DNA of 32,000 nt from Kineococcus radiotolerans SRS30216 = ATCC BAA-149 (GCF_000017305.1 NC_009664.2:120001-152000); one strand, 5' to 3'; shown: positions 1-25,763, counted from the first letter of the stretch. A program made the numbers and translations. The notes: a model not told the origin generated them from the sequence alone.

Positions 1-1061
1 TCGCCGCGGACTGGCCGCTCGTGGTGGCCGACGCCTCCGACGAGGAGTCGCTGCGCACGCTCGCGGAGTCGACGCGCGTCATGGTCTCCACCGTCGGCCC
101 CTACCTGCGCCACGGCCTGCCGCTGGTGCAGGCGTGCGCCCGCGCCGGCACCCACTACGCCGACCTGACGGGCGAGGTCCTGTTCGTGCGCGCCAGCATC
201 GACACCGCCGACGAGGCGGCCCGCGCGAGCGGGGCGCGGATCGTGCACTCCTGCGGTTTCGACTCGGTGCCCTCCGACCTGGCCGTGCTGCTCGCGCACG
301 AGTGGGCGCAGGCGCAGGACGCCGGCCCGCTCACGAGCGCCACGCTCGAGGTCCTCTCGGCGCGCGGCGGGTTCAGCGGCGGCACGGTGGACTCCCTGCG
401 CCTGCAGCTGGACACCGCGCGCCGCGACCGGCAGGCGCGGCGGCTGGTGGGCGACCCGTACGCCCTGAGCCCCGACCGCGCGCGCGAACCGGACCTGGGC
501 CGCCAGCCCGACGTGTTCCGCCCCCACCGGCGCGAGGCGACGAGCGAGTGGGTGGCGCCCTTCGTCATGGCCACCTACAACACCCGGGTGGTGCGGCGCA
601 GCAACGCCCTGCTCGACCACGCGTACGGGCCGCGGCTGCGCTACGCGGAGGTCATGGCGTTCTCCGGGCGCACCGCGGCCCTGCGGGCGAGCGCCGTCAC
701 GGGGGTGCTGGCCGGGCTCACGGGCCTGCTGGCCGTCCAGCCCCTGCGGCCGCTGCTCGACCGCCTGCTGCCTTCCCCCGGCACGGGCCCGGGCGAGCGC
801 ACCCGCCGCACGGGCCACTTCCGGCTGCGCGTGGACGCGCGCACGGAATCCGGCCGCCGCGCCACCGTGACCGTCGCCGCCCAGGGCGACCCCGGTTACG
901 CCGCGACGGCGGTGATGCTCGGGCAGAGCGCTCTGGCGCTCGCCCTCGACGGCGATCGCCTGCCCGCCCGCGCGGGGGTCCTGACCCCCGCCACGGGCAT
1001 CGGGATGCCGCTGGTGAACCGCCTGCGCCACGAGGGGTTCACGCTCGACGTCGCCACCTGA
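1..1061 (+). CDS. Saccharopine dehydrogenase-family / trans-acting enoyl-reductase-like protein, 5'-truncated by the window edge
   Basis: The frame is open from nt 3 to TGA 1059-1061. Motifs STVGPYLRHGLPLVQAC..GTHYADLTGEVLF and SCGFDSVPSDL are typical of the Sacchrp_dh family. The N-terminal Rossmann part is absent, so the gene starts upstream of the window. Confidence 0.8.
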   Translation, partial: AADWPLVVADASDEESLRTLAESTRVMVSTVGPYLRHGLPLVQACARAGTHYADLTGEVLFVRASIDTADEAARASGARIVHSCGFDSVPSDLAVLLAHEWAQAQDAGPLTSATLEVLSARGGFSGGTVDSLRLQLDTARRDRQARRLVGDPYALSPDRAREPDLGRQPDVFRPHRREATSEWVAPFVMATYNTRVVRRSNALLDHAYGPRLRYAEVMAFSGRTAALRASAVTGVLAGLTGLLAVQPLRPLLDRLLPSPGTGPGERTRRTGHFRLRVDARTESGRRATVTVAAQGDPGYAATAVMLGQSALALALDGDRLPARAGVLTPATGIGMPLVNRLRHEGFTLDVAT

Positions 1062-1496
1062 CGACCCGGCACGCGGTGGAGGGGTGCCGCCGGCCTCAGA
1101 GTCGTCGGGGCGGGGAACGAGCCGCGCCCGGAGGACCGCGACAGCAGGACGCGGGGACCGACCGGGTAGCACCGGCCCCACCCGCCGGAACGGACGCCGA
1201 CGGCAGCCGGCACCGGCGCCGACCAGCTCGGACGGCCCGTGGTGACGGACCGGACGGGGAGAGCTGAGACCGGCAGCAGCCGATCCGTCACGGCGACGGG
1301 CGGGTCAGCGAGGCCGGGACGGCTGGGCCCGGACAGTCGGGCTGGCCAGCTGAGCCGGGCACACGACGGCGTCGCCGGCACCTCGGGGCAGCCGTTCAGG
1401 GACCGGGTCAGCAAAGGACTCAAGCGGCCACGCGCCGGTGCCGAGAACGTCCGGACCGGCCTCGCCCCGAGACCGGGAACCCGGAGAGGACCAGCT

Positions 1497-2342
1497 GTGC
1501 GCACCCCCACCGCCACGACGCCGGGAAGCGCCGCGCAGCGCCACGACGTCCACGTCCTGGGCCACCCCCAGGGACCCGTGCTGCTCCTCCTGCACGGCTT
1601 CGGCACCGACCAGTCGTCCTGGAACCGGGTCCTGCCCGCCCTCACCCCCCACCACCGCGTCGTGCTGCTGGACCAGGCCGGTGCCGGCGGTTTCGACGCC
1701 ACCGCCTACGACCGCACCCGCTACTCCACCCTCGACGGCTACGCCGCCGACCTCGTCGAGGTGTGCGAAGAGCTCGACCTGCACGACGTCACCCTCGTCG
1801 GGCACAGCGTCAGCGCCATGATCGCCGCCCGCGTCGCGCTGGCCGCACCCGACCGCATCCGCCAGGTCGTCATGCTCGTCCCCTCCGCCCGCTACACCGA
1901 CGACCCCGCCAGCGGCTACGACGGCGGTTTCAGCACCGAGGACATCGACGAACTGCTCGACACCCTCGACAGCAACTACCTCTCCTGGACCGCCACCGTC
2001 GCGCCCATGGTCATGGGCAACCCGAGCCGTCCTGAGCTGGGTGAGGAGCTCACCGCCTCCTTCCGCCAACTGCACCCCGACGCCGCCCGCGACTTCGCCC
2101 GCGCCACCTTCCGCACCGACTCCCGCGCCCTGCTCGCCGAGGTGAGCACCCCCGTCCTCGTCCTGCAGAGCCGCGACGACGTCCTCGCCCCCGACACCGC
2201 CGTCCGCGACGTCGTCGCCCGCCTGCCCCACGCCACCCTGGTGAGCCTGGACGCCTCCGGGCACTGCCCCCACCTCAGCCACCCCGACGCCACCGCCGCC
2301 GCCGTCCTGGCCCACCTCGCACCCCCCGGCCACCGGTCCTGA
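1497..2342 (+). CDS. RsbQ / KAI2 / D14-family alpha/beta-hydrolase (Ser-Asp-His)
   Basis: GTG 1497 lies 6 nt after RBS GGAGAGGA (1483-1490). The in-frame upstream extension from 1239 is R/G-rich with rare codons (AGA, GGA, CGA, TCA) and lower GC3. Motifs: LLHGFGTDQSSW, nucleophile elbow VGHSVSAMI, LQSRDDVLAP and ASGHCPHLSHP. The protein is collinear by eye with B. subtilis RsbQ and plant KAI2/D14. Confidence 0.88.
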   Translation: MRTPTATTPGSAAQRHDVHVLGHPQGPVLLLLHGFGTDQSSWNRVLPALTPHHRVVLLDQAGAGGFDATAYDRTRYSTLDGYAADLVEVCEELDLHDVTLVGHSVSAMIAARVALAAPDRIRQVVMLVPSARYTDDPASGYDGGFSTEDIDELLDTLDSNYLSWTATVAPMVMGNPSRPELGEELTASFRQLHPDAARDFARATFRTDSRALLAEVSTPVLVLQSRDDVLAPDTAVRDVVARLPHATLVSLDASGHCPHLSHPDATAAAVLAHLAPPGHRS

Positions 2343-2397
2343 CCCGGCCGCCCGGGCTGCTCACCCGACCGGAGGACTGCCTCGGGAGCTCAGCCCG

Positions 2398-4152
2398 GTG
2401 ACGCGGTGGTCGATCATTGACCAGGTGGGTGACCAGGTGGATCGCGCCGAGGAGGCTGAGACGCAGCGCTTGACCGCCCTGCGCAGCTACCACCTGCTCG
2501 ATCACCGCTCCGAGCCTGCGAGCGCTCTCCTCCCGAGCAGCCCCGGGCAGGACGCGGAGGACCCGACCGCGCCGAGGTCGGCGGTGCGGACCGGGGCTCC
2601 CGCGGGGACCGGGACGACCGCGGGGAGCGGGGCGGCGGTGGCGGCCGGGCCCGTCAGCGGCGCGGAGATCGACGCCATCACCCGCCTCGCCGCCGCCATC
2701 GCCGGCGTCCCCTTCGCCAGCGTCAACCTCATCGACGAGCACCACCAGCACCCCCTCAGCAGCACCGGGACCCCGCCGGCGCCCCCGGCACGACCGATCC
2801 CCCGCACCCAGTCCCTGTGCGCCACCCACTTCAGCGCCGGCGAGCCGGTCCACGTCCCCGACCTCAGCCGCGACCCCCGCTACGCCGACCACCCCTGGGT
2901 CGACGGGCGCCTCGGCGCGCTGCGCTCCTACACCTCCGTCCCCCTGCTCAGCCCCGACGGGCACGCCCTGGGCACCCTGTGCGCCACCGACCTCGTCCCC
3001 CGCCGCCTCGACGAGGAGCGACTGGCCCGCCTGTGCGACCTCGCCGCCGTGCTGGTCGCGCTCTTCGAACGCCACCGCGACGCCGTCCTCCACGCCCACC
3101 TCGCCGCCGAGGCCGAAGCCCAGCGCGCCCTGGCGCAGTCGCTGATGGCTGAGCAGCAGCACCGCGCCCAGCAGCTGACCCAGCTGGCCCGCGCCTCCAG
3201 CGCCCTGGCCACCGCCGAGGACCCCCGCACCGCGATCTGCCACGCCGCGCGCCGGCTCACCGACGCCGACGGGGTCTACCTCCTGCAACCGGACGGGCAC
3301 GGACGCCTGGTCTCCACCGCCGTCGTCGGCTTCCCCGACGGAGGAGATCGAGCCCCGGACCCGGACTCCCACCGGGACCCGCTCCTGGACCTGGACCTGA
3401 CCCGGGAGCGGGGGCTGCCGCTGGCCACCTTCCGCAGCGGGAAGCAGCGGTTCGTCGCCGACGTCGCCGCCCACCCCGACGCCGACCCCGCCCTCGTCGA
3501 GACCCTCGGAACGGTGTCCGGGGCTTGGCAGCCGATCCTGCTGCGCGCAGGCACCTGCACCGGGGTCCTGGGCATCGTCTGGCGCCACCGGCGCGAGGAC
3601 CTGGACGCCACGCTGGCCTGGGCGCTGCACACCCTGGCCCGCGAAGCCGCCCACACCCTGGAGCGCGCGGACCTGCTCGCCCAGCTGACCGAGGCCTCCC
3701 GGCGCGACCCCCTCACCGGGGTCGGGAACCGCCGGCACTGGGACGAGGTCGCCGCCCGCGAGGTCGGTCGTGCCGAGCGCAGCGGGGACCCGCTGACGTT
3801 CGCGTTGATCGACCTGGACCACTTCAAGGCCTACAACGACGCCTACGGCCACCTCATCGGCGACGACCTGCTGCGCGAGTTCGCCGCCGCCGCCGGTGCG
3901 CAACTGCGCCCCGGTGACACGATCGCCCGCTGGGGCGGGGAGGAGTTCGCCCTCGCCCTGCCCGGCTGCGACCTCGAGCAGGCCCGCGACGTCGCCGACC
4001 GCATCCGCGCCGTCGTCCCCCACGCCCAGACCGCCACGGCCGGTCTGGCGCAGTGGACCCCCGGCGCCAGCGCCGCCACCGTCCTCGCCCGCGCCGACGC
4101 CGCCCTCTACCGCGGCAAGGAGGCGGGCCGCGACACCACCGCCACCGCCTAG
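2398..4152 (+). CDS. GAF-GAF-GGDEF diguanylate cyclase (GGEEF active site, RxxD I-site)
   Basis: GTG 2398 lies 9 nt after GGGAG (2384-2388). The N-terminus reads RLTALRSYHLLD...ITRLAAAIAGVPFASVNLID...SLCATH...RSYTSVPL, which is GAF. A second GAF-like block follows (GVYLLQPDGHGRLV...GVLGIVWRH). The C-terminus reads DPLTGVGNRRHWD..FALIDLDHFKAYNDAYGHLIGDDLL...RPGDTIARWGGEEFALALPG...ALYRGKEAGRD, which is GGDEF. The exact start is uncertain by a few codons. Confidence 0.9.
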   Translation: MTRWSIIDQVGDQVDRAEEAETQRLTALRSYHLLDHRSEPASALLPSSPGQDAEDPTAPRSAVRTGAPAGTGTTAGSGAAVAAGPVSGAEIDAITRLAAAIAGVPFASVNLIDEHHQHPLSSTGTPPAPPARPIPRTQSLCATHFSAGEPVHVPDLSRDPRYADHPWVDGRLGALRSYTSVPLLSPDGHALGTLCATDLVPRRLDEERLARLCDLAAVLVALFERHRDAVLHAHLAAEAEAQRALAQSLMAEQQHRAQQLTQLARASSALATAEDPRTAICHAARRLTDADGVYLLQPDGHGRLVSTAVVGFPDGGDRAPDPDSHRDPLLDLDLTRERGLPLATFRSGKQRFVADVAAHPDADPALVETLGTVSGAWQPILLRAGTCTGVLGIVWRHRREDLDATLAWALHTLAREAAHTLERADLLAQLTEASRRDPLTGVGNRRHWDEVAAREVGRAERSGDPLTFALIDLDHFKAYNDAYGHLIGDDLLREFAAAAGAQLRPGDTIARWGGEEFALALPGCDLEQARDVADRIRAVVPHAQTATAGLAQWTPGASAATVLARADAALYRGKEAGRDTTATA

Positions 4153-4171
4153 GGGCGTCCCCGTGACGCCC
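4153..4171 (+). terminator. Small GC hairpin directly after the GGDEF stop codon (candidate weak or intrinsic terminator)
   Basis: GGGCGTC (4153-4159) pairs with GACGCCC (4165-4171) around a 5-nt loop, abutting TAG 4150-4152. There is no U-tract. Confidence 0.3.
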
Positions 4172-4287
4172 ACCGGCCCGCGACCCCGGGCCTCGGGGAT
4201 CCGCGAGGCGGCGCGGCGGGAGGGGCAGGACCGCCACCGGGTTCAGGGCCCGCGTCCGGAGAACCGTCGGACGTCACCGCTCACCGC

Positions 4288-4314
4288 TCAAGTACTCCGC
4301 GCAGGCGCCGATCG
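4288..4314 (+). promoter_or_regulatory. Candidate sigma-28 (FliA/SigD/WhiG)-type promoter upstream of the MCP gene
   Basis: TCAA (4288-4291), a 15-nt spacer, then GCCGATCG (4307-4314). The sigma-28 consensus is TAAA-N15-GCCGATAA. The site lies about 40 nt upstream of ATG 4355. Confidence 0.35.
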
Positions 4315-4354
4315 ATCACGTGGGCACGTCCGTGCCTCGTGAGGAGGAGCGACG

Positions 4355-5971
4355 ATGCCCGCAGCGCCCGCAGCACCCGAGAACCGCCACCCCCGGTCCT
4401 GGATCTCCGACCGCCCCGTCGGGGCCCGCATCGGCGCCGGCGTCGCGGTGGGCGCCCTCGTCGCCCTCGCCGTCGGCGGGGTCGCCACGACCCGCCTGAT
4501 GGACCTGCGCGACGCCACCGCCGCCACCTACTCCCAGAGCGTGCAGCCGCTGGTCGACCTCTCCGCCGCCCAGCGGGGTTACCAGGCCGCCCGCGCCCGG
4601 GTCGTGGAGTACCCCGCCGCCGGCCCCGAGGTCCGCGCGAAGCTGCTGACGCAGTTCGACGAGAAGTCCGCCGACCTCACCGCCGGTCTCGACGCCTACG
4701 CCGCCGACGCCGCCGACCCCGCCCTGGTGGAGGCCGTGCGCGAGGCGCAGGAGCAGATCGACACCCTCTTCCACGACACCCTCGTCCCCCAGGCCGACTC
4801 CGGCGACGTCGCCGGCGCGGCCATCACCTACCGCGAGCAGATCCTCCCCGTCGTCTCCGCCGGCGCCGACGCCATCGAAGCCGCCGGCCAGGCCGAGGAG
4901 GCCCGCGCCAAGGCCCGCACCGAGGCCGCCACCGACAGCGCCTCCTCCGCCCTCCTCGTCGTCGGTCTCGTCCTGACCCTGGGTCTGCTGCTCGCCCTGG
5001 CCATCGCCGCCGTCGTCGTGCGCGGCATCACCACCCCCCTGCGCCGGGTCGCGCAGGTCCTGGACGCCGTCGCCGAGGGCGACCTCACCCAGGACGCCGG
5101 GATCCACAGCCGCGACGAGATCGGGCGCATGGCCGCCAGCCTGCAGCGCGCGACCACCCACCTGCGCTCGGTCGTCACCTCCCTCACCAGCACGTCCTCC
5201 GCGCTGGCGCGCTCCAGCACCCAGCTCTCCTCCACCAGCGCTGAGCTGGCCGGTGGCGCCGAGGCCGCCGCCACCCAGGCCGGCGTCGTCTCCGGTGCGG
5301 CCGAGGAGGTCTCGCGCACCGTCTCCACCCTCGCCGCCGGCAGCGAGCAGATGGGCGCGAGCATCCGCGAGATCAGCGTCAGCGCGGCCGACGCGGCCCG
5401 GGTCGCGGAGCAGGCCGTGGACATGGCCTCCGCCGCCGACGAGACGGTCAGCAAGCTCGGGGACAGCTCCCGCGAGATCGGCGACGTCGTCAAGGCCATC
5501 ACCGCCATCGCCGAGCAGACGAACCTGCTGGCCCTCAACGCCACCATCGAGGCCGCGCGCGCCGGGGAGATGGGCAAGGGCTTCGCCGTCGTCGCCGGTG
5601 AGGTGAAGGAGCTCGCGCAGCAGACCGCGCGCGCCACCGAGGACATCACCCGCCGCGTCGACACGATCCAGGCCGACACCGGCCACGCGGTGAGCTCCAT
5701 CGCCCAGATCCGCGAGGTCATCGCCCGCATCAGCGACTACCAGACCACGATCGCCTCGGCCGTGGAGGAGCAGACCGCGACGACGGCGGAGATGAACGGC
5801 AACGTCAGCGAAGCGGCCGGCTCGTCGGAGGACATCGCCCGCAACATCTCCACCATCGCCGACAGCGCCGCGTCCACCACCCGCGCCGCTGAGCAGACCC
5901 GGCAGGCCTCCACCGACCTCGGTGCGCTGTCCTCGGAGCTGGCGGAGTCGGTCGGCCGCTTCCGCGTCTGA
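4355..5971 (+). CDS. Methyl-accepting chemotaxis protein (two TM segments, 4-helix-bundle-type sensor, HAMP, MA domain)
   Basis: ATG 4355 lies 5 nt after GAGGAGGAG (4341-4349). TM1 is [18 protein letters not shown] and TM2 is [28 protein letters not shown] reads [18 protein letters not shown]. The conserved hairpin tip [35 protein letters not shown] is present. Confidence 0.93.
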
Positions 5972-5989
5972 TCTCGACCCAGCACGCCC

Positions 5990-6038
5990 GCGAGCGGCCC
6001 CCTGCCAGCGCCAGCGCCACGCAGGCCGGGCCGCTCGC
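5990..6038. terminator. Extended GC hairpin between the convergent MCP and ABC operon (candidate bidirectional terminator)
   Basis: GCGAGCGGCCC (5990-6000) pairs with GGGCCGCTCGC (6028-6038), an 11-bp perfect stem. An inner CCTGC/GCAGG stem follows. The hairpin starts 19 nt after the MCP stop. There is no U-tract. Confidence 0.4.
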
Positions 6039-6067
6039 CCACTTGCCGCGTCGACCGTCCCGGCCGA

Positions 6068-6105
6068 GCCGGGGCGACGACCCCGGCCGCGACCGGATCG
6101 TCGCG
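6068..6105 (-). terminator. Two adjacent small hairpins downstream of the ABC ATPase gene
   Basis: GCCGGGG (6068-6074) pairs with CCCCGGC (6081-6087). CGCGAC (6088-6093) pairs with GTCGCG (6100-6105). Both lie 30-65 nt after the minus-strand stop at 6134. Confidence 0.25.
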
Positions 6106-6133
6106 ACGAACCCCTCGTGGACCGTCGTCGAGG

Positions 6134-7237
6134 TCAGCGCAGCCTGGCTCCGCCCTCGGGTTCGAAGAGGTAGACGCGTTCGGCGGGTGCGGTCAGGCGG
6201 AGGGATTCCCCGCGCTGGTAGCGCAGGTCCGCGGGTGTCTGGACGACGACCGAGGAGTCCAGCCCCTCGACCCGCACGGTGGCCAACCCGAACTCCAGCA
6301 CGTTCTCGTAGACCAGGACCTCGCCGGGCACCGACGTCTCGCCCTCCCGGGCGATCCGGGCGTCCTGCGGGCGGACGCCCACCGTGACGGCCGTTCCCGG
6401 GGCGGCCCGTGACGCCGTCGGCAGCACGCCGTCGCGCCCGACCCGCACCGTGCCGGTCCGCTCGACCGTCCCCTCGAGGAGGTTGATCTTCGGCTCACCG
6501 ACGAAGTCGGCGACGAAGCGGTTGGCGGGGTCGTCGAAGATCTCGTCCGCGGTCCCGAACTGCTGGATGGTGCCGCCGTCCATGACGGCCAGGCGGTCGG
6601 CCAGGCTCAGCGCCTCGAGCTGGTCGTGGGTGACGACGATCGTGGTGTACCCGAACTCCCGCTGCAGGACCTTCAGCTCCCGGCGCACTCGTTGGCGCTG
6701 GGCGGCGTCCAGGTGCGACAGCGGTTCGTCCAGCAGCAGCACGGGCGGGTTGCGGACCAGGGCGCGGGCGAGGGCGACGCGCTGCTTCTGCCCGCTGGAC
6801 AGCCCCGCCGGCCGCAGCTCCAGGAGGTCGCTCATCTCCAGCCGGTCGGCGATGGCCCGCACCCGGGCGTCCGCGTCCTTCACCCCGCGGGCCTTGAGGC
6901 CGTAGGACAGGTTCCCCCGGACGTCCAGGGGCGGGTAGAGGGCGTAGCTCTCGAACCCGACGCCGACGTCACGCTTGCCGGGGGGCAGGTGCGGGATCGA
7001 GCGCTCGCCGATGCGGATGTCCCCGGAGGTCACGGTCTCCAGCCCCGCGATCATCCGCAGGGTCGTCGTCTTGCCGCACCCGGAGGGTCCGAGCAGGGCG
7101 ACGAGCTCGCCCGGGGCGATGTGCAGGTCGATGCCCTTGACCGCGTGGAACGCCTCCCGTCCCCGGCTCTCGTACCGCTTGTGCAACTCCTCCAGGACCA
7201 GCGCCTTGGCGGTGGTCGTCTCCAGCGCGCTCACCAC
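6134..7237 (-). CDS. Sugar/polyol ABC transporter ATP-binding protein (MalK/UgpC type), second ATPase
   Basis: GTG 7237 is the start. Walker A is GPSGCGKTT, the signature is LSSGQKQRVALARAL, Walker B is LLLDEPLSHLD and the H-loop is VTHD. A C-terminal MalK-like regulatory domain is present. The start overlaps the upstream ATPase stop (GTGGTGA, 7231-7237). Confidence 0.92.
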   Translation of the reverse strand: MVSALETTTAKALVLEELHKRYESRGREAFHAVKGIDLHIAPGELVALLGPSGCGKTTTLRMIAGLETVTSGDIRIGERSIPHLPPGKRDVGVGFESYALYPPLDVRGNLSYGLKARGVKDADARVRAIADRLEMSDLLELRPAGLSSGQKQRVALARALVRNPPVLLLDEPLSHLDAAQRQRVRRELKVLQREFGYTTIVVTHDQLEALSLADRLAVMDGGTIQQFGTADEIFDDPANRFVADFVGEPKINLLEGTVERTGTVRVGRDGVLPTASRAAPGTAVTVGVRPQDARIAREGETSVPGEVLVYENVLEFGLATVRVEGLDSSVVVQTPADLRYQRGESLRLTAPAERVYLFEPEGGARLR

Positions 7238-22244: not shown

Positions 22245-23102
22245 TCAGTGCCGTTCGAGCTCCCTCAGCGCGTCGTGCGCCGCCGCCACCGCCCGCGTCC
22301 GGTCCTGACCGGGTCCGCTGCGCGAGGCGAGGACGCCCTCGGCCAGGACCGCCACGGTCATCATGACCGCGGCGTAGCTGTCGAAGGCTCCGGGACCCTC
22401 CACGGGGACGACGAGGCGGTGGGCCACCGGCACCGGCGGCGGAGCAGCGGCGGGGTCGGTGAGCAGGACGCAGGGGACGCCGAGGTCGGCGGCGAGCCTC
22501 ACCGCCGCCGACACCGTCGGGGTCCGGCGGCGGAAGCCCACGACGACGAGGACGTCGCGCTCGTCGAGCCCGGCGAGCTCCTCGGCGACGGTCTGCCCCG
22601 GCAGGGGGCCCACCGCCACGTCGGGCCGGGCCTGCACCAGCTGCTCGCGCAGGTGCAGCGCGACGGGGTAGCTGTTGCGCCAGCCGAGGACGAGGACCCG
22701 CCGGGCCCGCGCGAGGGCGGTGGTCACGGCGTCGAGGTCGGCGGCGGCCAGGGCCGACGCGGTGCGGGTGAGGTTCTCGACGTCGTGGGCGAGGTGGACC
22801 GCGACCGGTTCCCCGCCGCTGTCGGGCAGTCCCCCGGTGGGGACGCCGCGGGCGCGCGGTGAGCGGGCGCCGGTCCGGGCCTGGGCGTAGGAGGTGAAAC
22901 CGAGCCGGCGGAAGAACCGGCTGACCGTGGCCTTCGACGCCCCGGACGCCTCGGCCAGCTCCGCCCCGCTGTAGCCGGCGAGGTCGTCGGCGCGTTCGAG
23001 CACGAACCGGGCGACCTGCCGCTCGGCGGGGGTGAGGCGCGGCCACGCCGCGTCGACGCGCTCGCGCACGCCGCGGCCGGGGGAGGTCTCGGGGGCGGTC
23101 AC
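22245..23102 (-). CDS. RpiR/MurR-family transcriptional regulator (HTH_6 plus SIS domain)
   Basis: GTG 23102 overlaps the upstream stop (GTGA). The HTH reads LTPAERQVARFVLERADDLAGYSGAELAEASGASKATVSRFFRRLGF. A SIS-like C-terminal half is present (VLVLGWRNSYPVA...VVVGFRRRT). Confidence 0.88.
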   Translation of the reverse strand: MTAPETSPGRGVRERVDAAWPRLTPAERQVARFVLERADDLAGYSGAELAEASGASKATVSRFFRRLGFTSYAQARTGARSPRARGVPTGGLPDSGGEPVAVHLAHDVENLTRTASALAAADLDAVTTALARARRVLVLGWRNSYPVALHLREQLVQARPDVAVGPLPGQTVAEELAGLDERDVLVVVGFRRRTPTVSAAVRLAADLGVPCVLLTDPAAAPPPVPVAHRLVVPVEGPGAFDSYAAVMMTVAVLAEGVLASRSGPGQDRTRAVAAAHDALRELERH

Positions 23103-24361
23103 GGGCGGTGGGTGGCGGCGCGGCGGGTGGCGACGTCGAGGACGGCCGCCTCGAGCGCGTCGAGGCCGGTGGCGACGTCGGACAGCGTCACGCTCTCGGC
23201 GGGGGCGTGGCTGATGCCGTCCGCGCAGCGCACGAAGACCATGGCGACCGGGGTGATGGCGGCGACGGCCATCGCGTCGTGCCCGGCCCGCGACCAGATC
23301 CGCAGCGGATCGGCGTCACCGGTGGCGGCGATCCCGGCCACCACCGACGCCGTCAGGTCCGCGTCGCAGTAGACCCCGGCGGCGCGGTGGGTCTCGGCCA
23401 GCTCGAACCCGAGCCCGCGGGCGGTGCAGAGCCGTCGGGCGTCCGCCGCGATCGCCTCGACCAGCGCGTCGCGCTCCCCGTCGTGCTCGGCGCGGACGTC
23501 GAGGGAGAACTCCACGAGACCGGGGACGACGTTCACGCCCCCGGGGTGGGCCTGGAGGCGGCCGACGGTGGCGATCCCGCCGCGTTCGACGGCGAGGCGT
23601 TCGACGGCCAGCACCACCTCGGAGGCGCCCACGAGGGCGTCGCGCCGCTTCGGGTAGGGGGTGCCGCCGGCGTGGCGGGCCTCGCCGACGACGCGGCCGG
23701 TGAAGCGGCGGGCCCCGGCGATGGAGGTGACCACCCCGAGGGGACGGTCGGCGGCCTCCAGGTGCGGGCCCTGCTCGATGTGCAGCTCCAGGTAGCCGAC
23801 GAGGTCCTCGGGCCGCCGCGCGGCCTCGGTGATCCGGGCGGGGTCCAGGCCGAACGCCGCGGCGGCTTCCCGCACGGTCGTCCCGGCGTCGTCCGCGCGG
23901 TCCCACCACTCCTCGCGCCAGGCGCCGGCGACGGCGGAACTGCCCATCAGGGCGGTGGAGAACCGGGTGCCCTCCTCGTCGGAGAACGCGACGACCTCCA
24001 GCGCGAACGGGAGTTCCGCCGCGCGCGGGGCGAGGCGGCCGGCGACCTCGATCGCGGTGAGGACCCCGAGGACGCCGTCGTAGCGGCCGGCGTCGGTGAC
24101 GGTGTCCAGGTGCGAACCCAGCACGAGCGCGGGCAGGCCGGGGGCGTTCCCCTCCAGCCGGCCCCACTGGTTGCCGGCCTGGTCGCGCCAGGTGCGCATC
24201 CCGGCCCCGGCCATCCACCGGGCCGCCACCTCGTTGGCCCTCGCGTGCTCGGGCGAGAGGTGGACCCGCTCGACGCCGCCCTCGAGCGCCGAGACGGCGG
24301 CGAGCTCGTCGCACCGGTCCAGGACCCGCTGCGCGTCGCGCCGGGCGTCGGAGGTGCTCAC
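23099..24361 (-). CDS. allC: Allantoate amidohydrolase (M20 family; AllC/PucF-like Zn/Mn hydrolase)
   Basis: GTG 24361 overlaps the aminotransferase stop (GTGA). The protein is collinear by eye with E. coli AllC: GSHLDTVTDAGRYDGVLGV, VVAFSDEEGTRF, ELHIEQGPHLE, HAGGTPYPKRRDA, VNVVPG, SRAGHDAM and GISHAPAE. N-carbamoyl-amino-acid hydrolase cannot be fully excluded without a tree. Confidence 0.85.
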   Translation of the reverse strand: MSTSDARRDAQRVLDRCDELAAVSALEGGVERVHLSPEHARANEVAARWMAGAGMRTWRDQAGNQWGRLEGNAPGLPALVLGSHLDTVTDAGRYDGVLGVLTAIEVAGRLAPRAAELPFALEVVAFSDEEGTRFSTALMGSSAVAGAWREEWWDRADDAGTTVREAAAAFGLDPARITEAARRPEDLVGYLELHIEQGPHLEAADRPLGVVTSIAGARRFTGRVVGEARHAGGTPYPKRRDALVGASEVVLAVERLAVERGGIATVGRLQAHPGGVNVVPGLVEFSLDVRAEHDGERDALVEAIAADARRLCTARGLGFELAETHRAAGVYCDADLTASVVAGIAATGDADPLRIWSRAGHDAMAVAAITPVAMVFVRCADGISHAPAESVTLSDVATGLDALEAAVLDVATRRAATHRP

Positions 24362-25647
24362 GCGTAGACCTCCTGCGCCGCCGCGGTTCCCGCTCCGGCT
24401 TCGACGGGCGCGCCGTGGCGGCGCAGGACCTGCTCGAGGGCGGCGAGGGTGACCAGGACGGCGTCCTTGCGGGCGTTGTACCCCATCGTCCCGATGCGCC
24501 AGACCCGTCCGGCCAGGGGCCCGAAACTGGTTCCGATCTCGATGCCGTAGTCGTGCAGGAGTTCGGCGCGCACGGCGTCCCCGTCGATCCCGGAGGGGAT
24601 CTCGACGGCCACGACGTTGTGCATCTTGTGCTCCACGTCGCCGAACACCGCGAGTCCCAGCCCGCGAACCCCTGCCAGCATCGCCTCGCCGTGCCGGCGG
24701 TGGCGGGCGACGGTCGCGTCCAGCCCCTCCTCCAGGACCAGCCGCGCGCACTCGCGAGCGCCGTACAGCATCGTGGTGGCCTCGGTGTGGTGGTTCAGGC
24801 GCTCCTCGCCCCAGTAGTCGAGGATCATCGCGAGGTCGAAGTAGTTGGAGCGGATGCGCAGCCCCGCCGGGGCGGTGTCCTCCGCCGAGGCGGGGTCGGC
24901 GCGCAGGCCCGCCTCGACGCTGCGGCGCGCTTCGATCACCGCCACGGCGCGCGGGGACAGCGAGATCGGGGCGCTGCCGGAAGGGCCGCCGAGGCACTTC
25001 TGCAGCCCGGCGGTGGCGACGTCGACCTCCCAGGCGTCCATCTCGAACGGGTTCCCGGCGAGGGATGCCGTGCAGTCGACGTAGAGCAGGGCGCCGTGCC
25101 GGTGACACATCCGGCCCACGCCCTCCAGGGGCTGGTTCATCGTGGTGGAGGTGTCGCCCTGGACGAGCGCGACGAGCTTCGGCTGCACCTCGCGCACCGC
25201 GTCCTCGAGGGCCTCGAGGGTGAACACCTGCCCCCACGGAACCTCGCGGACGTGGACGTCGGCGCCGCAGCGCTCGGCGATCTCGCGCAGCAGGTGGCCG
25301 AAGCGGCCGAAGACGGGGACGAGGACGCGGTCGCCGGGGACGATGAGCGAGACCAGCGCGGCTTCGATGCCGGCGCGGGAGGTGCCGTCGACGAGCAGGG
25401 TCGCCGCGTTGGTGGTGCGGAAGACCGCGCGGTAGAGGGCTTGGGTCTCGTTCATGTACGCGGTCATGGCCGGGTCGTACTGGCCGACGAGCTGGGCGGA
25501 CATGGCGCGCAGGACCCGGGGGTCCACGGTGATGGGGCCCGGCCCCATGAGCAGCCGCGGCGGTGGGGCGATCGGGGCCGCGACGGAGGTGCGCAGGAGG
25601 GACGGGTCCACCGCCGGGTTCTGGATCGACTGTTCCACACTGGTCAT
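24358..25647 (-). CDS. Class-V aminotransferase of the alanine/serine-glyoxylate family (PucG-like, candidate (S)-ureidoglycine-glyoxylate aminotransferase)
   Basis: ATG 25647 gives MTSVEQS and lies 10 nt after GGAG. Motifs: LMGPGPITVDPRVLRAM, VQGDTSTT and the PLP lysine motif AGLQKCLGGPSG. It is located between allantoinase and allantoate amidohydrolase. Confidence 0.85.
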   Translation of the reverse strand: MTSVEQSIQNPAVDPSLLRTSVAAPIAPPPRLLMGPGPITVDPRVLRAMSAQLVGQYDPAMTAYMNETQALYRAVFRTTNAATLLVDGTSRAGIEAALVSLIVPGDRVLVPVFGRFGHLLREIAERCGADVHVREVPWGQVFTLEALEDAVREVQPKLVALVQGDTSTTMNQPLEGVGRMCHRHGALLYVDCTASLAGNPFEMDAWEVDVATAGLQKCLGGPSGSAPISLSPRAVAVIEARRSVEAGLRADPASAEDTAPAGLRIRSNYFDLAMILDYWGEERLNHHTEATTMLYGARECARLVLEEGLDATVARHRRHGEAMLAGVRGLGLAVFGDVEHKMHNVVAVEIPSGIDGDAVRAELLHDYGIEIGTSFGPLAGRVWRIGTMGYNARKDAVLVTLAALEQVLRRHGAPVEAGAGTAAAQEVYA

Positions 25648-25763
25648 GTTATGCAATCTCCGTTCCAGAACCAATGCCCCGCACCAACCCTTCGAAACTT
25701 CCGGATGCCGGCCCCCTGCTGCCACCGGGCCCCACCACCGACGCCGTCCGGGCGCGGGACGGG

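Follow-up and report, generated by a model that had tools for sequence, protein, structure and literature searches.

A lineage-restricted RsbQ paralogue beside a GAF-GAF-GGDEF cyclase in Kineococcus radiotolerans: possibly co-expressed neighbours rather than a receptor pair

Does a hydrolase gene placed directly before a diguanylate cyclase gene encode a ligand sensor for that cyclase? The question is raised by a stretch of 32,000 nucleotides (nt) of Kineococcus radiotolerans SRS30216 (= ATCC BAA-149; NC_009664.2:120001-152000), hereafter the window, in which a gene for an alpha/beta-hydrolase related to bacterial RsbQ and to plant KAI2 and D14 is followed, on the same strand, by a gene for a cyclase with two GAF domains and one GGDEF domain. 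An initial annotation, made from the sequence alone, had read the two as the two-gene logic of RsbQ and RsbP, with GAF in the place of PAS as the sensor and synthesis of cyclic diguanosine monophosphate (c-di-GMP) as the output. The explanation preferred here is a different one, in which the hydrolase is a duplicate (RsbQ2) lying beside a self-regulated cyclase, with which it would be co-expressed, and the two would not form a hydrolase-GAF receptor pair. Taken as a whole, this explanation is tentative, and we rate it as somewhat short of probable. The coordinates of all features are presented in Table 1.

That the hydrolase is a true member of the RsbQ/KAI2/D14 clade with an intact catalytic triad, as had been annotated, is borne out by database ranking, alignment, and superposition of the predicted structure. 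In a sequence search of the Protein Data Bank (PDB), the top match is Bacillus subtilis RsbQ (1wom, E = 4.5e-67, 229.6 bits), followed by a second tier of about 55 KAI2, D14, HTL and DAD2 chains (E = 1e-52 to 1e-38, 135-180 bits), after which the scores fall steeply to 64 bits (E = 1e-16) for unrelated hydrolases. The AlphaFold2 (AF2) model has a predicted local distance difference test score (pLDDT) of 91.1, superposes on 1wom with template-modelling (TM) scores of 0.90/0.93 and a root-mean-square deviation (rmsd) of 1.3 Å, and presents four lid helices (residues 147-159, 161-173, 179-190, and 194-206). The motifs named in the initial annotation were all found, namely HGFGTDQSSW (residue 33), GHSVSAM (Ser104), SRDD (Asp228), and SGHCPHLS (His256), and the triad formed by the last three aligns with those of RsbQ and KAI2 and is kept in all three RsbQ2 sequences. 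An identity as enol-lactonase, BioH or another metabolic hydrolase was rejected, given all NCBIfam models score far under their cut-offs and RsbQ, KAI2 and D14 lead the PDB ranking widely. The open reading frame (ORF) starts with GTG, with a GGAGAGG Shine-Dalgarno sequence 7 nt 5' of it; its in-frame extension up to position 1239 was discarded as non-coding, since the alignment with a relative contains insertions and deletions (indels) of 1 and 2 nt 5' of position 1497.

Judged from its sequence, the window hydrolase is a paralogue and not the canonical RsbQ copy of this organism. The canonical operon of K. radiotolerans (L136, 739-3302) encodes a 282-aa RsbQ1 (ABS05826.1), the gene of which overlaps by 4 nt a PAS-GGDEF-EAL gene (P0211), the closest relative of the partner found in Kineococcus sp. 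SYSU DK006 (81% identical). RsbQ1 is 77% identical to RsbQ2, and the SRS30216 chromosome carries both RsbQ1 and a protein of the RsbQ2 cluster: it encodes ABS03582.1/WP_011981279.1 (281 aa), which falls in the same cluster at 90% identity or more as the window hydrolase and is probably its accession. Both proteins are also present in a second K. radiotolerans strain, in which the counterpart of the window hydrolase is 98% identical to it. When 53 sequences were placed in a neighbour-joining tree, the window protein, that of the second strain (P0001), and a metagenome protein (P0002) group together at 100% bootstrap, nested among the Kineococcus RsbQ1 sequences, and RsbQ2 is therefore the product of a duplication within the genus. 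The clade is rare, with two protein clusters among 5.8 billion sequences and two lineages known. At the residues conserved in at least 85% of the other Kineococcus-type RsbQ proteins, RsbQ2 departs at A128V and C225S only.

The other RsbQ genes of the genus have a uniform context. According to Kineococcus gene contexts obtained from 12 single-protein look-ups, a PAS-GGDEF-EAL protein is the partner of every other Kineococcus RsbQ gene examined. Such pairs occur in L082, L083, L089, L093, L094, L095, and L138, and the two genes overlap by 4 nt in Kineococcus sp. SYSU DK006, K. glutinatus, K. vitellinus/T13, and several metagenome relatives. In at least ten further Kineococcus species, RsbQ and a PAS-GGDEF-EAL protein are encoded on contigs of the same length.

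The protein encoded next to RsbQ2 is, as annotated, a GAF-GAF-GGDEF protein with an intact GGEEF motif and an RPGD inhibitory site (I-site) five residues upstream, which Pfam matches and motif positions both confirm. It is 100% identical to P0121 on the K. radiotolerans chromosome. Residues D472, D474, K477, N480, D481, R511, the GGEEF motif, K574, and R578 are invariant among its relatives; carrying all catalytic residues and the I-site, it is predicted to be of the active type. Its AF2 model (pLDDT 83) is composed, in order, of a helix (residues 3-30), a disordered insert (36-86), GAF1, a helix (206-272), GAF2, a helix (404-434), and the GGDEF domain; both GAF regions are modelled as a beta-sheet with helices, and both exceed the Pfam gathering score. 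The start is ambiguous, given the longest ORF begins at GTG 2398, with GGGAG 9 nt upstream, and database entries begin at GTG 2425, which gives 575 aa. The insert at residues 36-86 (2503-2655) is of low complexity, rich in Ala, Gly, Pro and Thr, and predicted to be disordered (pLDDT < 50). Its length varies greatly between orthologues, and it is almost missing in the P0125/P0126 subgroup.

What this protein lacks is the RsbP-type PAS, marked by an hPCG motif and a conserved F-alpha helix, which is the one domain that experiments have shown to bind RsbQ. A profile built from 113 partner N-termini, which gave 162.5 and 133.9 bits for two true partners omitted from it, scores the cyclase at 0.1 bits for an RsbP-type PAS, and Pfam gives GAF only; the best six-frame match of the same profile anywhere in the window is 3.4 bits. 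A PAS domain hidden in the cyclase or in the rest of the window was therefore rejected as an explanation. An account of 45 adjacent pairs of RsbQ and RsbP-type-PAS genes, with PP2C, histidine kinase or diguanylate cyclase outputs, was given by Nadezhdin, Brody and Price (2011, PMC3183031); according to that survey, the RsbP PAS domain is necessary and sufficient for RsbQ binding, and c-di-GMP enzymes are always coupled to RsbQ via an N-terminal RsbP-type PAS. Hydrolase-dependent input into c-di-GMP signalling, which the initial annotation had presented as not characterised, was thus already contained in the 2011 survey and is not new; only the substitution of GAF for PAS would be. More recently, an AF2 model placed RsbQ at the interface between PAS and linker, with the module coupled to GGDEF cyclases (2025 eLife article, PMC12143880).

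Partners were surveyed at 123 loci, comprising 80 actinobacterial loci among the matches listed (mostly Streptomyces, no Kineococcus, with homologues 51-59% identical to the window hydrolase) and 43 loci from Kineococcus genomes and metagenomes. The 80 listed actinobacterial matches have a PAS-SpoIIE (PP2C) partner in 77 cases, a PAS-histidine kinase in three, and a GAF partner in none, and the 43 further partners are mostly PAS-histidine kinase, PAS-GGDEF-EAL or PAS-PP2C proteins. By profile match, an RsbP-type PAS is present in 119 of the 123 partners. The two genes overlap at 93 of these 119 loci, by exactly 4 nt (ATGA/GTGA-type) at 80 of them, and at a further 19 they are 0-12 nt apart. 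This 4-nt overlap points strongly to translational coupling, and could serve to recognize true RsbQ modules. In the window, the hydrolase gene is likewise directly upstream on the same strand, with a gap of 55-82 nt instead of the overlap.

The four loci without a PAS partner are the two RsbQ2 loci, L113, which has a methyltransferase neighbour, and L128. In L128 (2-490 and 667-2385), a hydrolase gene broken by an in-frame stop and a frameshift lies 173 nt before a gene for a soluble GAF-GAF-MCPsignal protein. It was considered as independent support for an RsbQ-GAF pairing and rejected: its hydrolase belongs to the PAS-partnered clade and is interrupted by the stop codon and the frameshift, and the locus looks like a broken canonical one. 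A Kineococcus-like metagenomic RsbQ (L098, 3-605, which is P0036) carries Gln where the catalytic His would be and is not followed by a PAS-type gene; it is possibly a non-catalytic or decaying orphan. At L101 (3107-4486), the RsbQ partner joins a GGDEF domain to an RsbP-type PAS and a weak GAF_2 match (E = 2.6e-4); a GAF can therefore be placed between the PAS that receives RsbQ and the cyclase domain.

Conservation of the RsbQ2-cyclase adjacency in related genomes, the lack of which had been named beforehand as a result that would refute the pairing, was found from the side of the hydrolase and is mostly absent from that of the cyclase, so that on this count the pairing is largely, but not fully, refuted. 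A GAF-type neighbour is present in both RsbQ2 lineages, K. radiotolerans and the metagenome locus L090. The layout of the window recurs in the second K. radiotolerans strain, including the gene for a methyl-accepting chemotaxis protein (MCP) that follows. In L090, the RsbQ2 of which is 84% identical, the beginning of a protein bearing the N-terminal signature of the window cyclase family lies about 100 nt 3' of RsbQ2; this N-terminus is nearer to the P0125/P0126 subgroup than to that of the window, and the two N-termini are quite diverged. Upstream of RsbQ2, L090 has an MCP fragment, versus a saccharopine-dehydrogenase-like gene in the window. As for the cyclase, five of the seven known contexts of its orthologues have no RsbQ gene: full-length orthologues (63-77% identity) without an upstream RsbQ occur in L084, L085, L087, L088 (K. 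indalonis), and L137, each with a different upstream neighbour, in most cases a divergent one. K. vitellinus combines an orthologue of the cyclase (P0127) with an RsbQ1 and its PAS partner, but has no RsbQ2. Two histories would account for this distribution, either an old pair with several losses of RsbQ2, or an RsbQ2 cassette that came to lie twice beside the same cyclase family.

At the DNA level, positions 1354-2351 of the window match L090 at 86.5% identity. The homology starts 143 nt before the RsbQ2 start codon and stops 9 nt after the stop codon (at 2351), and the part before the gene contains 1-2-nt indels, which is why this leader is regarded as non-coding. The 143-nt leader is kept in L090 though the genes further upstream differ, and could hold a promoter or operator travelling with the gene. 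No Rfam match to a riboswitch or other structured RNA was obtained at E <= 1 in positions 1-6500, which cover the leader, the spacer between the two genes, and the region 5' of the MCP gene, and none of these three presents a folding signal (z of -0.06, -0.77, and +0.87, respectively). Remnants of a PAS gene or ends of a mobile element around the hydrolase gene were also looked for and rejected: DNA homology to the canonical locus is confined to the coding region (1539-2317), and repeats are at chance level.

Under the preferred explanation, RsbQ2 would work like RsbQ, with ligand binding and hydrolysis at the triad leading to a conformational change and to signalling by protein contact. Hydrolysis of butenolides by RsbQ, with covalent modification of the catalytic His, has been reported (bioRxiv 10.1101/2023.12.05.570042). 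The likeliest receiver of RsbQ2 would be the PAS-GGDEF-EAL protein encoded elsewhere and contacted in trans, because RsbQ2 keeps nearly all residues conserved in RsbQ1 and only RsbP-type PAS domains are known to receive RsbQ; alternatively, RsbQ2 may have no dedicated receiver at present. The adjacent cyclase would answer to its own tandem GAF sensors, acting via the long helices, and to c-di-GMP feedback at RPGD. The two proteins would be co-expressed and converge on the c-di-GMP pool without forming a hydrolase-GAF receptor pair, and their juxtaposition would be secondary, having arisen after the duplication within Kineococcus.

Some observations weigh against this explanation. Both RsbQ2 lineages keep a gene of the GAF-type cyclase family downstream despite their different upstream flanks and the diverged cyclase N-termini, and this repetition looks like more than accident and favours a functional link. 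The triad is kept in RsbQ2, while two other RsbQ copies, deprived of their PAS partner, have decayed (His to Gln in L098; stop and frameshift in L128), hence RsbQ2 is in use for something. Its ratio of nonsynonymous to synonymous substitution rates (dN/dS) is 0.54, versus 0.30 for RsbQ1, both values being distorted by extreme G+C content at third codon positions (GC3), and the higher value is compatible with relaxation as well as with adaptation to a new partner. As a functional test, dN/dS was set aside: all Kineococcus genes fall within 0.3-0.58, owing to a GC3 of about 0.95, and the ratio discriminates poorly. Finally, we infer the action of RsbQ2 on a PAS protein in trans purely from the residues it shares with RsbQ1 and from the known receivers.

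A rival explanation follows the model of the initial annotation and takes the two proteins as a true two-component sensor: RsbQ2, on binding or hydrolysing its ligand, would contact the dimeric cyclase at its N-terminal helix/GAF1 and long-helix region and thereby switch the synthesis of c-di-GMP, GAF replacing PAS as the receiver. We consider this model unlikely. It draws on the same-strand arrangement with a 55-nt spacer and no terminator signal, on the association with one cyclase family in both lineages despite their flanks and N-termini, and on a triad kept under selection. It is also helped by the long helical linkers of the cyclase, of the kind modelled as the RsbQ contact in RsbP, and by the modular exchange of sensor domains before GGDEF, PP2C and histidine-kinase outputs (both PMC12143880), as well as by L101, which already joins an RsbP-type PAS, a weak GAF match, and a GGDEF domain in one partner. 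Yet the pairing is known from two independent lineages only, five orthologues of the cyclase do without an RsbQ neighbour, and the canonical PAS partner is present in the same cell. A GAF-only partner is absent from the 80 listed actinobacterial matches and, in the 43 other loci, occurs outside the RsbQ2 clade only in the pseudogenized L128. Hardly any RsbQ2-specific change at conserved sites signals a new interface. Of the two-gene RsbQ-RsbP logic, then, the clade, the triad, the cyclase sites, and the proximity of the genes stand, whereas the RsbP-type PAS and the 4-nt overlap are both missing. It is doubtful that, after the duplication, this RsbQ copy switched its receiver from PAS to the N-terminal helix/GAF region and opened a second, PAS-independent route to c-di-GMP. 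The opposite possibility, that RsbQ2 no longer signals at all and is a stand-alone esterase or lactonase, or a redundant duplicate drifting to loss whose position means nothing beyond possible read-through, seems more unlikely still. Its arguments are the extreme rarity of the clade, the loss of RsbQ2, under vertical inheritance, from most lineages keeping the cyclase, a dN/dS above that of RsbQ1, and the decay of other orphan RsbQ copies. These are opposed by the triad, the lid, and nearly all family-conserved residues, which are intact in both lineages, by the upstream leader conserved along with the gene, by a dN/dS still well under 1, and by the repeated adjacency to the same cyclase family.

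The co-expression invoked by the preferred explanation depends on what happens in the spacer. The same strand, the distance of 55 nt, and the motile actinomycete host were correctly annotated, and we consider it fairly probable that the two genes are co-transcribed. The spacer measures 55 nt, or 82 nt if the cyclase starts at 2425. It had been described as free of hairpins, a description that has to be corrected: an imperfect 17-nt inverted repeat fills it, covering GTG 2398 and its likely ribosome-binding site (RBS). This repeat lacks a T-tract, and its folding does not exceed that of shuffled sequence (z = -1.1; -1.14); its counterpart in the second K. radiotolerans strain has z = -2.1, and none was recovered in L090. 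The repeat may be an operator, a terminator without a U-tract, or chance. A pattern scan between the hydrolase and cyclase genes revealed no intrinsic terminator. Should the repeat be an actinobacterial U-tract-less terminator or an operator, the cyclase having its own promoter, the genes would be separate transcription units and neighbours only, to which we assign a lesser, though still appreciable, chance. In its favour are the repeat itself with its lower z in the second strain, a spacer that matches L090 only over the first 9 nt after the stop codon, and the cyclase orthologues elsewhere, which have upstream regions of their own (98-800 nt). On the other hand, the window hairpin is no better than shuffled sequence and has no T-tract, 55-82 nt leave little room for a promoter, and no sigma-70-like promoter was matched in a scan that is weak for actinomycetes.

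Table 1. Positions of the features described in the text, counted from the first nucleotide of the window.
Feature	Position	Strand	Evidence
Conserved non-coding leader 5' of the hydrolase gene, including the GGAGAGG RBS and presumably the promoter region	1354..1496	+	DNA match to L090
RsbQ2, paralogous alpha/beta-hydrolase of the RsbQ/KAI2/D14 clade, 281 aa	1497..2342	+	PDB match, fold, tree
Catalytic Ser104 (GHSVS elbow)	1806..1808	+	Aligned to RsbQ Ser96; 52 of 53 relatives, gap in the remaining one
Catalytic Asp228 (second D of SRDD)	2178..2180	+	53 of 53 sequences; aligned to the KAI2 catalytic Asp
Catalytic His256 (SGHCPH)	2262..2264	+	His in 52 of 53 sequences; Gln in P0036
Spacer with imperfect inverted repeat	2343..2397	+	55 nt; repeat arms 2352-2368 / 2382-2398
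GAF-GAF-GGDEF diguanylate cyclase, 584 aa	2398..4152	+	Pfam GAF, GAF_2, GGDEF; PDB 4zmu match
GAF domain 1 (residues ~86-205)	2653..3012	+	Pfam GAF 92-217, E = 3.3e-15, 57.2 bits; model
Continuous 67-residue helix from GAF1 to GAF2 (206-272)	3013..3213	+	AF2 model
GAF domain 2 (residues ~276-403)	3223..3606	+	Pfam GAF_2 ~280-423, 35.8 bits (cut-off 28.6); model
Signalling helix from GAF2 to GGDEF (404-434)	3607..3699	+	AF2 model
GGDEF catalytic domain	3703..4146	+	Pfam GGDEF, residues 436-579, E = 1e-35
RxxD inhibitory site RPGD (residues 504-507)	3907..3918	+	Five residues before GG
GGEEF active-site motif (residues 513-517)	3934..3948	+	Motif read from sequence
Methyl-accepting chemotaxis protein (4HB_MCP-HAMP-MCPsignal)	4355..5971	+	Pfam; 202 nt downstream of the cyclase gene

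As annotated, the MCP gene is the next one after the cyclase gene; it is treated here as a neighbour of the hydrolase-cyclase pair and not as a part of it. The remaining genes of the window, which has a G+C content of 73-78%, are unrelated and encode a sugar ABC transporter, a dehydrogenase, SorC and TetR regulators, an FGGY kinase, an amidase, and a xanthine-dehydrogenase-like cluster. Within 23099-25760, a 712-aa ORF lies on the minus strand (23099-25237), and the genes around this region (amidase, amidohydrolase, XdhC, molybdopterin dehydrogenase) suggest a catabolic cluster of the purine/xanthine type.

The main value of these results is corrective. The RsbQ-PAS-GGDEF-EAL arrangement is already standard in Kineococcus and its relatives and was published in 2011 as a bioinformatic finding, and the window cyclase is probably only the co-expressed neighbour of a rare paralogue. 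The reading given in the initial annotation is supported in part, and the window pair is a lineage-restricted, local, and unproven variant of the published RsbQ module, not a new signalling principle. Were the receiver switch true, the organism would have two parallel inputs of the butenolide type, from RsbQ1 to PAS-GGDEF-EAL and from RsbQ2 to GAF-GAF-GGDEF, and selection for the pairing would explain why, in a second lineage, RsbQ2 again lies upstream of a diverged cyclase of that family. RsbQ2 signalling to GAF would make it the first receptor of the RsbQ/KAI2 family shown to have a receiver other than RsbP-type PAS in bacteria or MAX2/SMXL in plants, and K. radiotolerans would offer a natural pair of paralogues for mapping the determinants of partner choice.

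In plants, KAI2 and D14 are hydrolase-receptors for butenolides that signal via the F-box protein MAX2/D3 and the degradation of SMXL proteins. The window hydrolase shares with them a homologous fold, the lid, and the triad (32-37% identity, TM 0.87-0.89), and nothing comparable to the MAX2/D3-SMXL route exists in the window system. In comparison with RsbQ-RsbP of B. subtilis, the window hydrolase is of the same family (42% identity to 1wom, at the rmsd given above), with the same triad, and its gene likewise comes first. The partner in B. subtilis, however, is a PAS-coiled coil-PP2C protein controlling sigma-B, whereas the neighbour in the window, at most a putative partner, is GAF-GAF-GGDEF.

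In comparison with the RsbQ-PAS module, of which RsbQ1 and P0211 are an example, the window also has a hydrolase gene directly upstream, on the same strand, of a gene for a multidomain c-di-GMP enzyme. Helical linkers between sensor and output, modelled by AF2 in the window cyclase at residues 206-272 and 404-434, are a feature it has in common with the partners in that module. Unlike those partners, it has tandem GAF domains and no RsbP-type PAS (0.1 versus 134-163 bits), and the adjacency is known in two lineages only, most orthologues of the partner being without it. Unlike the RsbQ1 operon of the same organism, the window has a GGDEF-only output instead of GGDEF-EAL, and a 55-nt spacer instead of the 4-nt overlap.

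The cyclase itself resembles a GAF-GGDEF cyclase of Pseudomonas aeruginosa (PDB 4zmu), which it matches in the GAF (E = 9e-14) and GGDEF (E = 1e-18) regions with GGEEF intact, and it differs from cyclases of this type in its two GAF domains joined by a 67-residue helix and in its disordered N-terminal insert. GAF-GGDEF cyclases like 4zmu have no known need for a hydrolase partner. A different kind of control is cited for Moorella thermoacetica in the 2025 article, where, unlike in the window, the partner is the kinase-like RsbT freed from the stressosome and the receiver is an RsbU N-terminal domain; this RsbU-N-terminal-GAF-GGDEF protein is nevertheless an earlier case of a GGDEF cyclase being switched by a small, separate partner via an N-terminal dimerization domain and a helical linker (PMC12143880).

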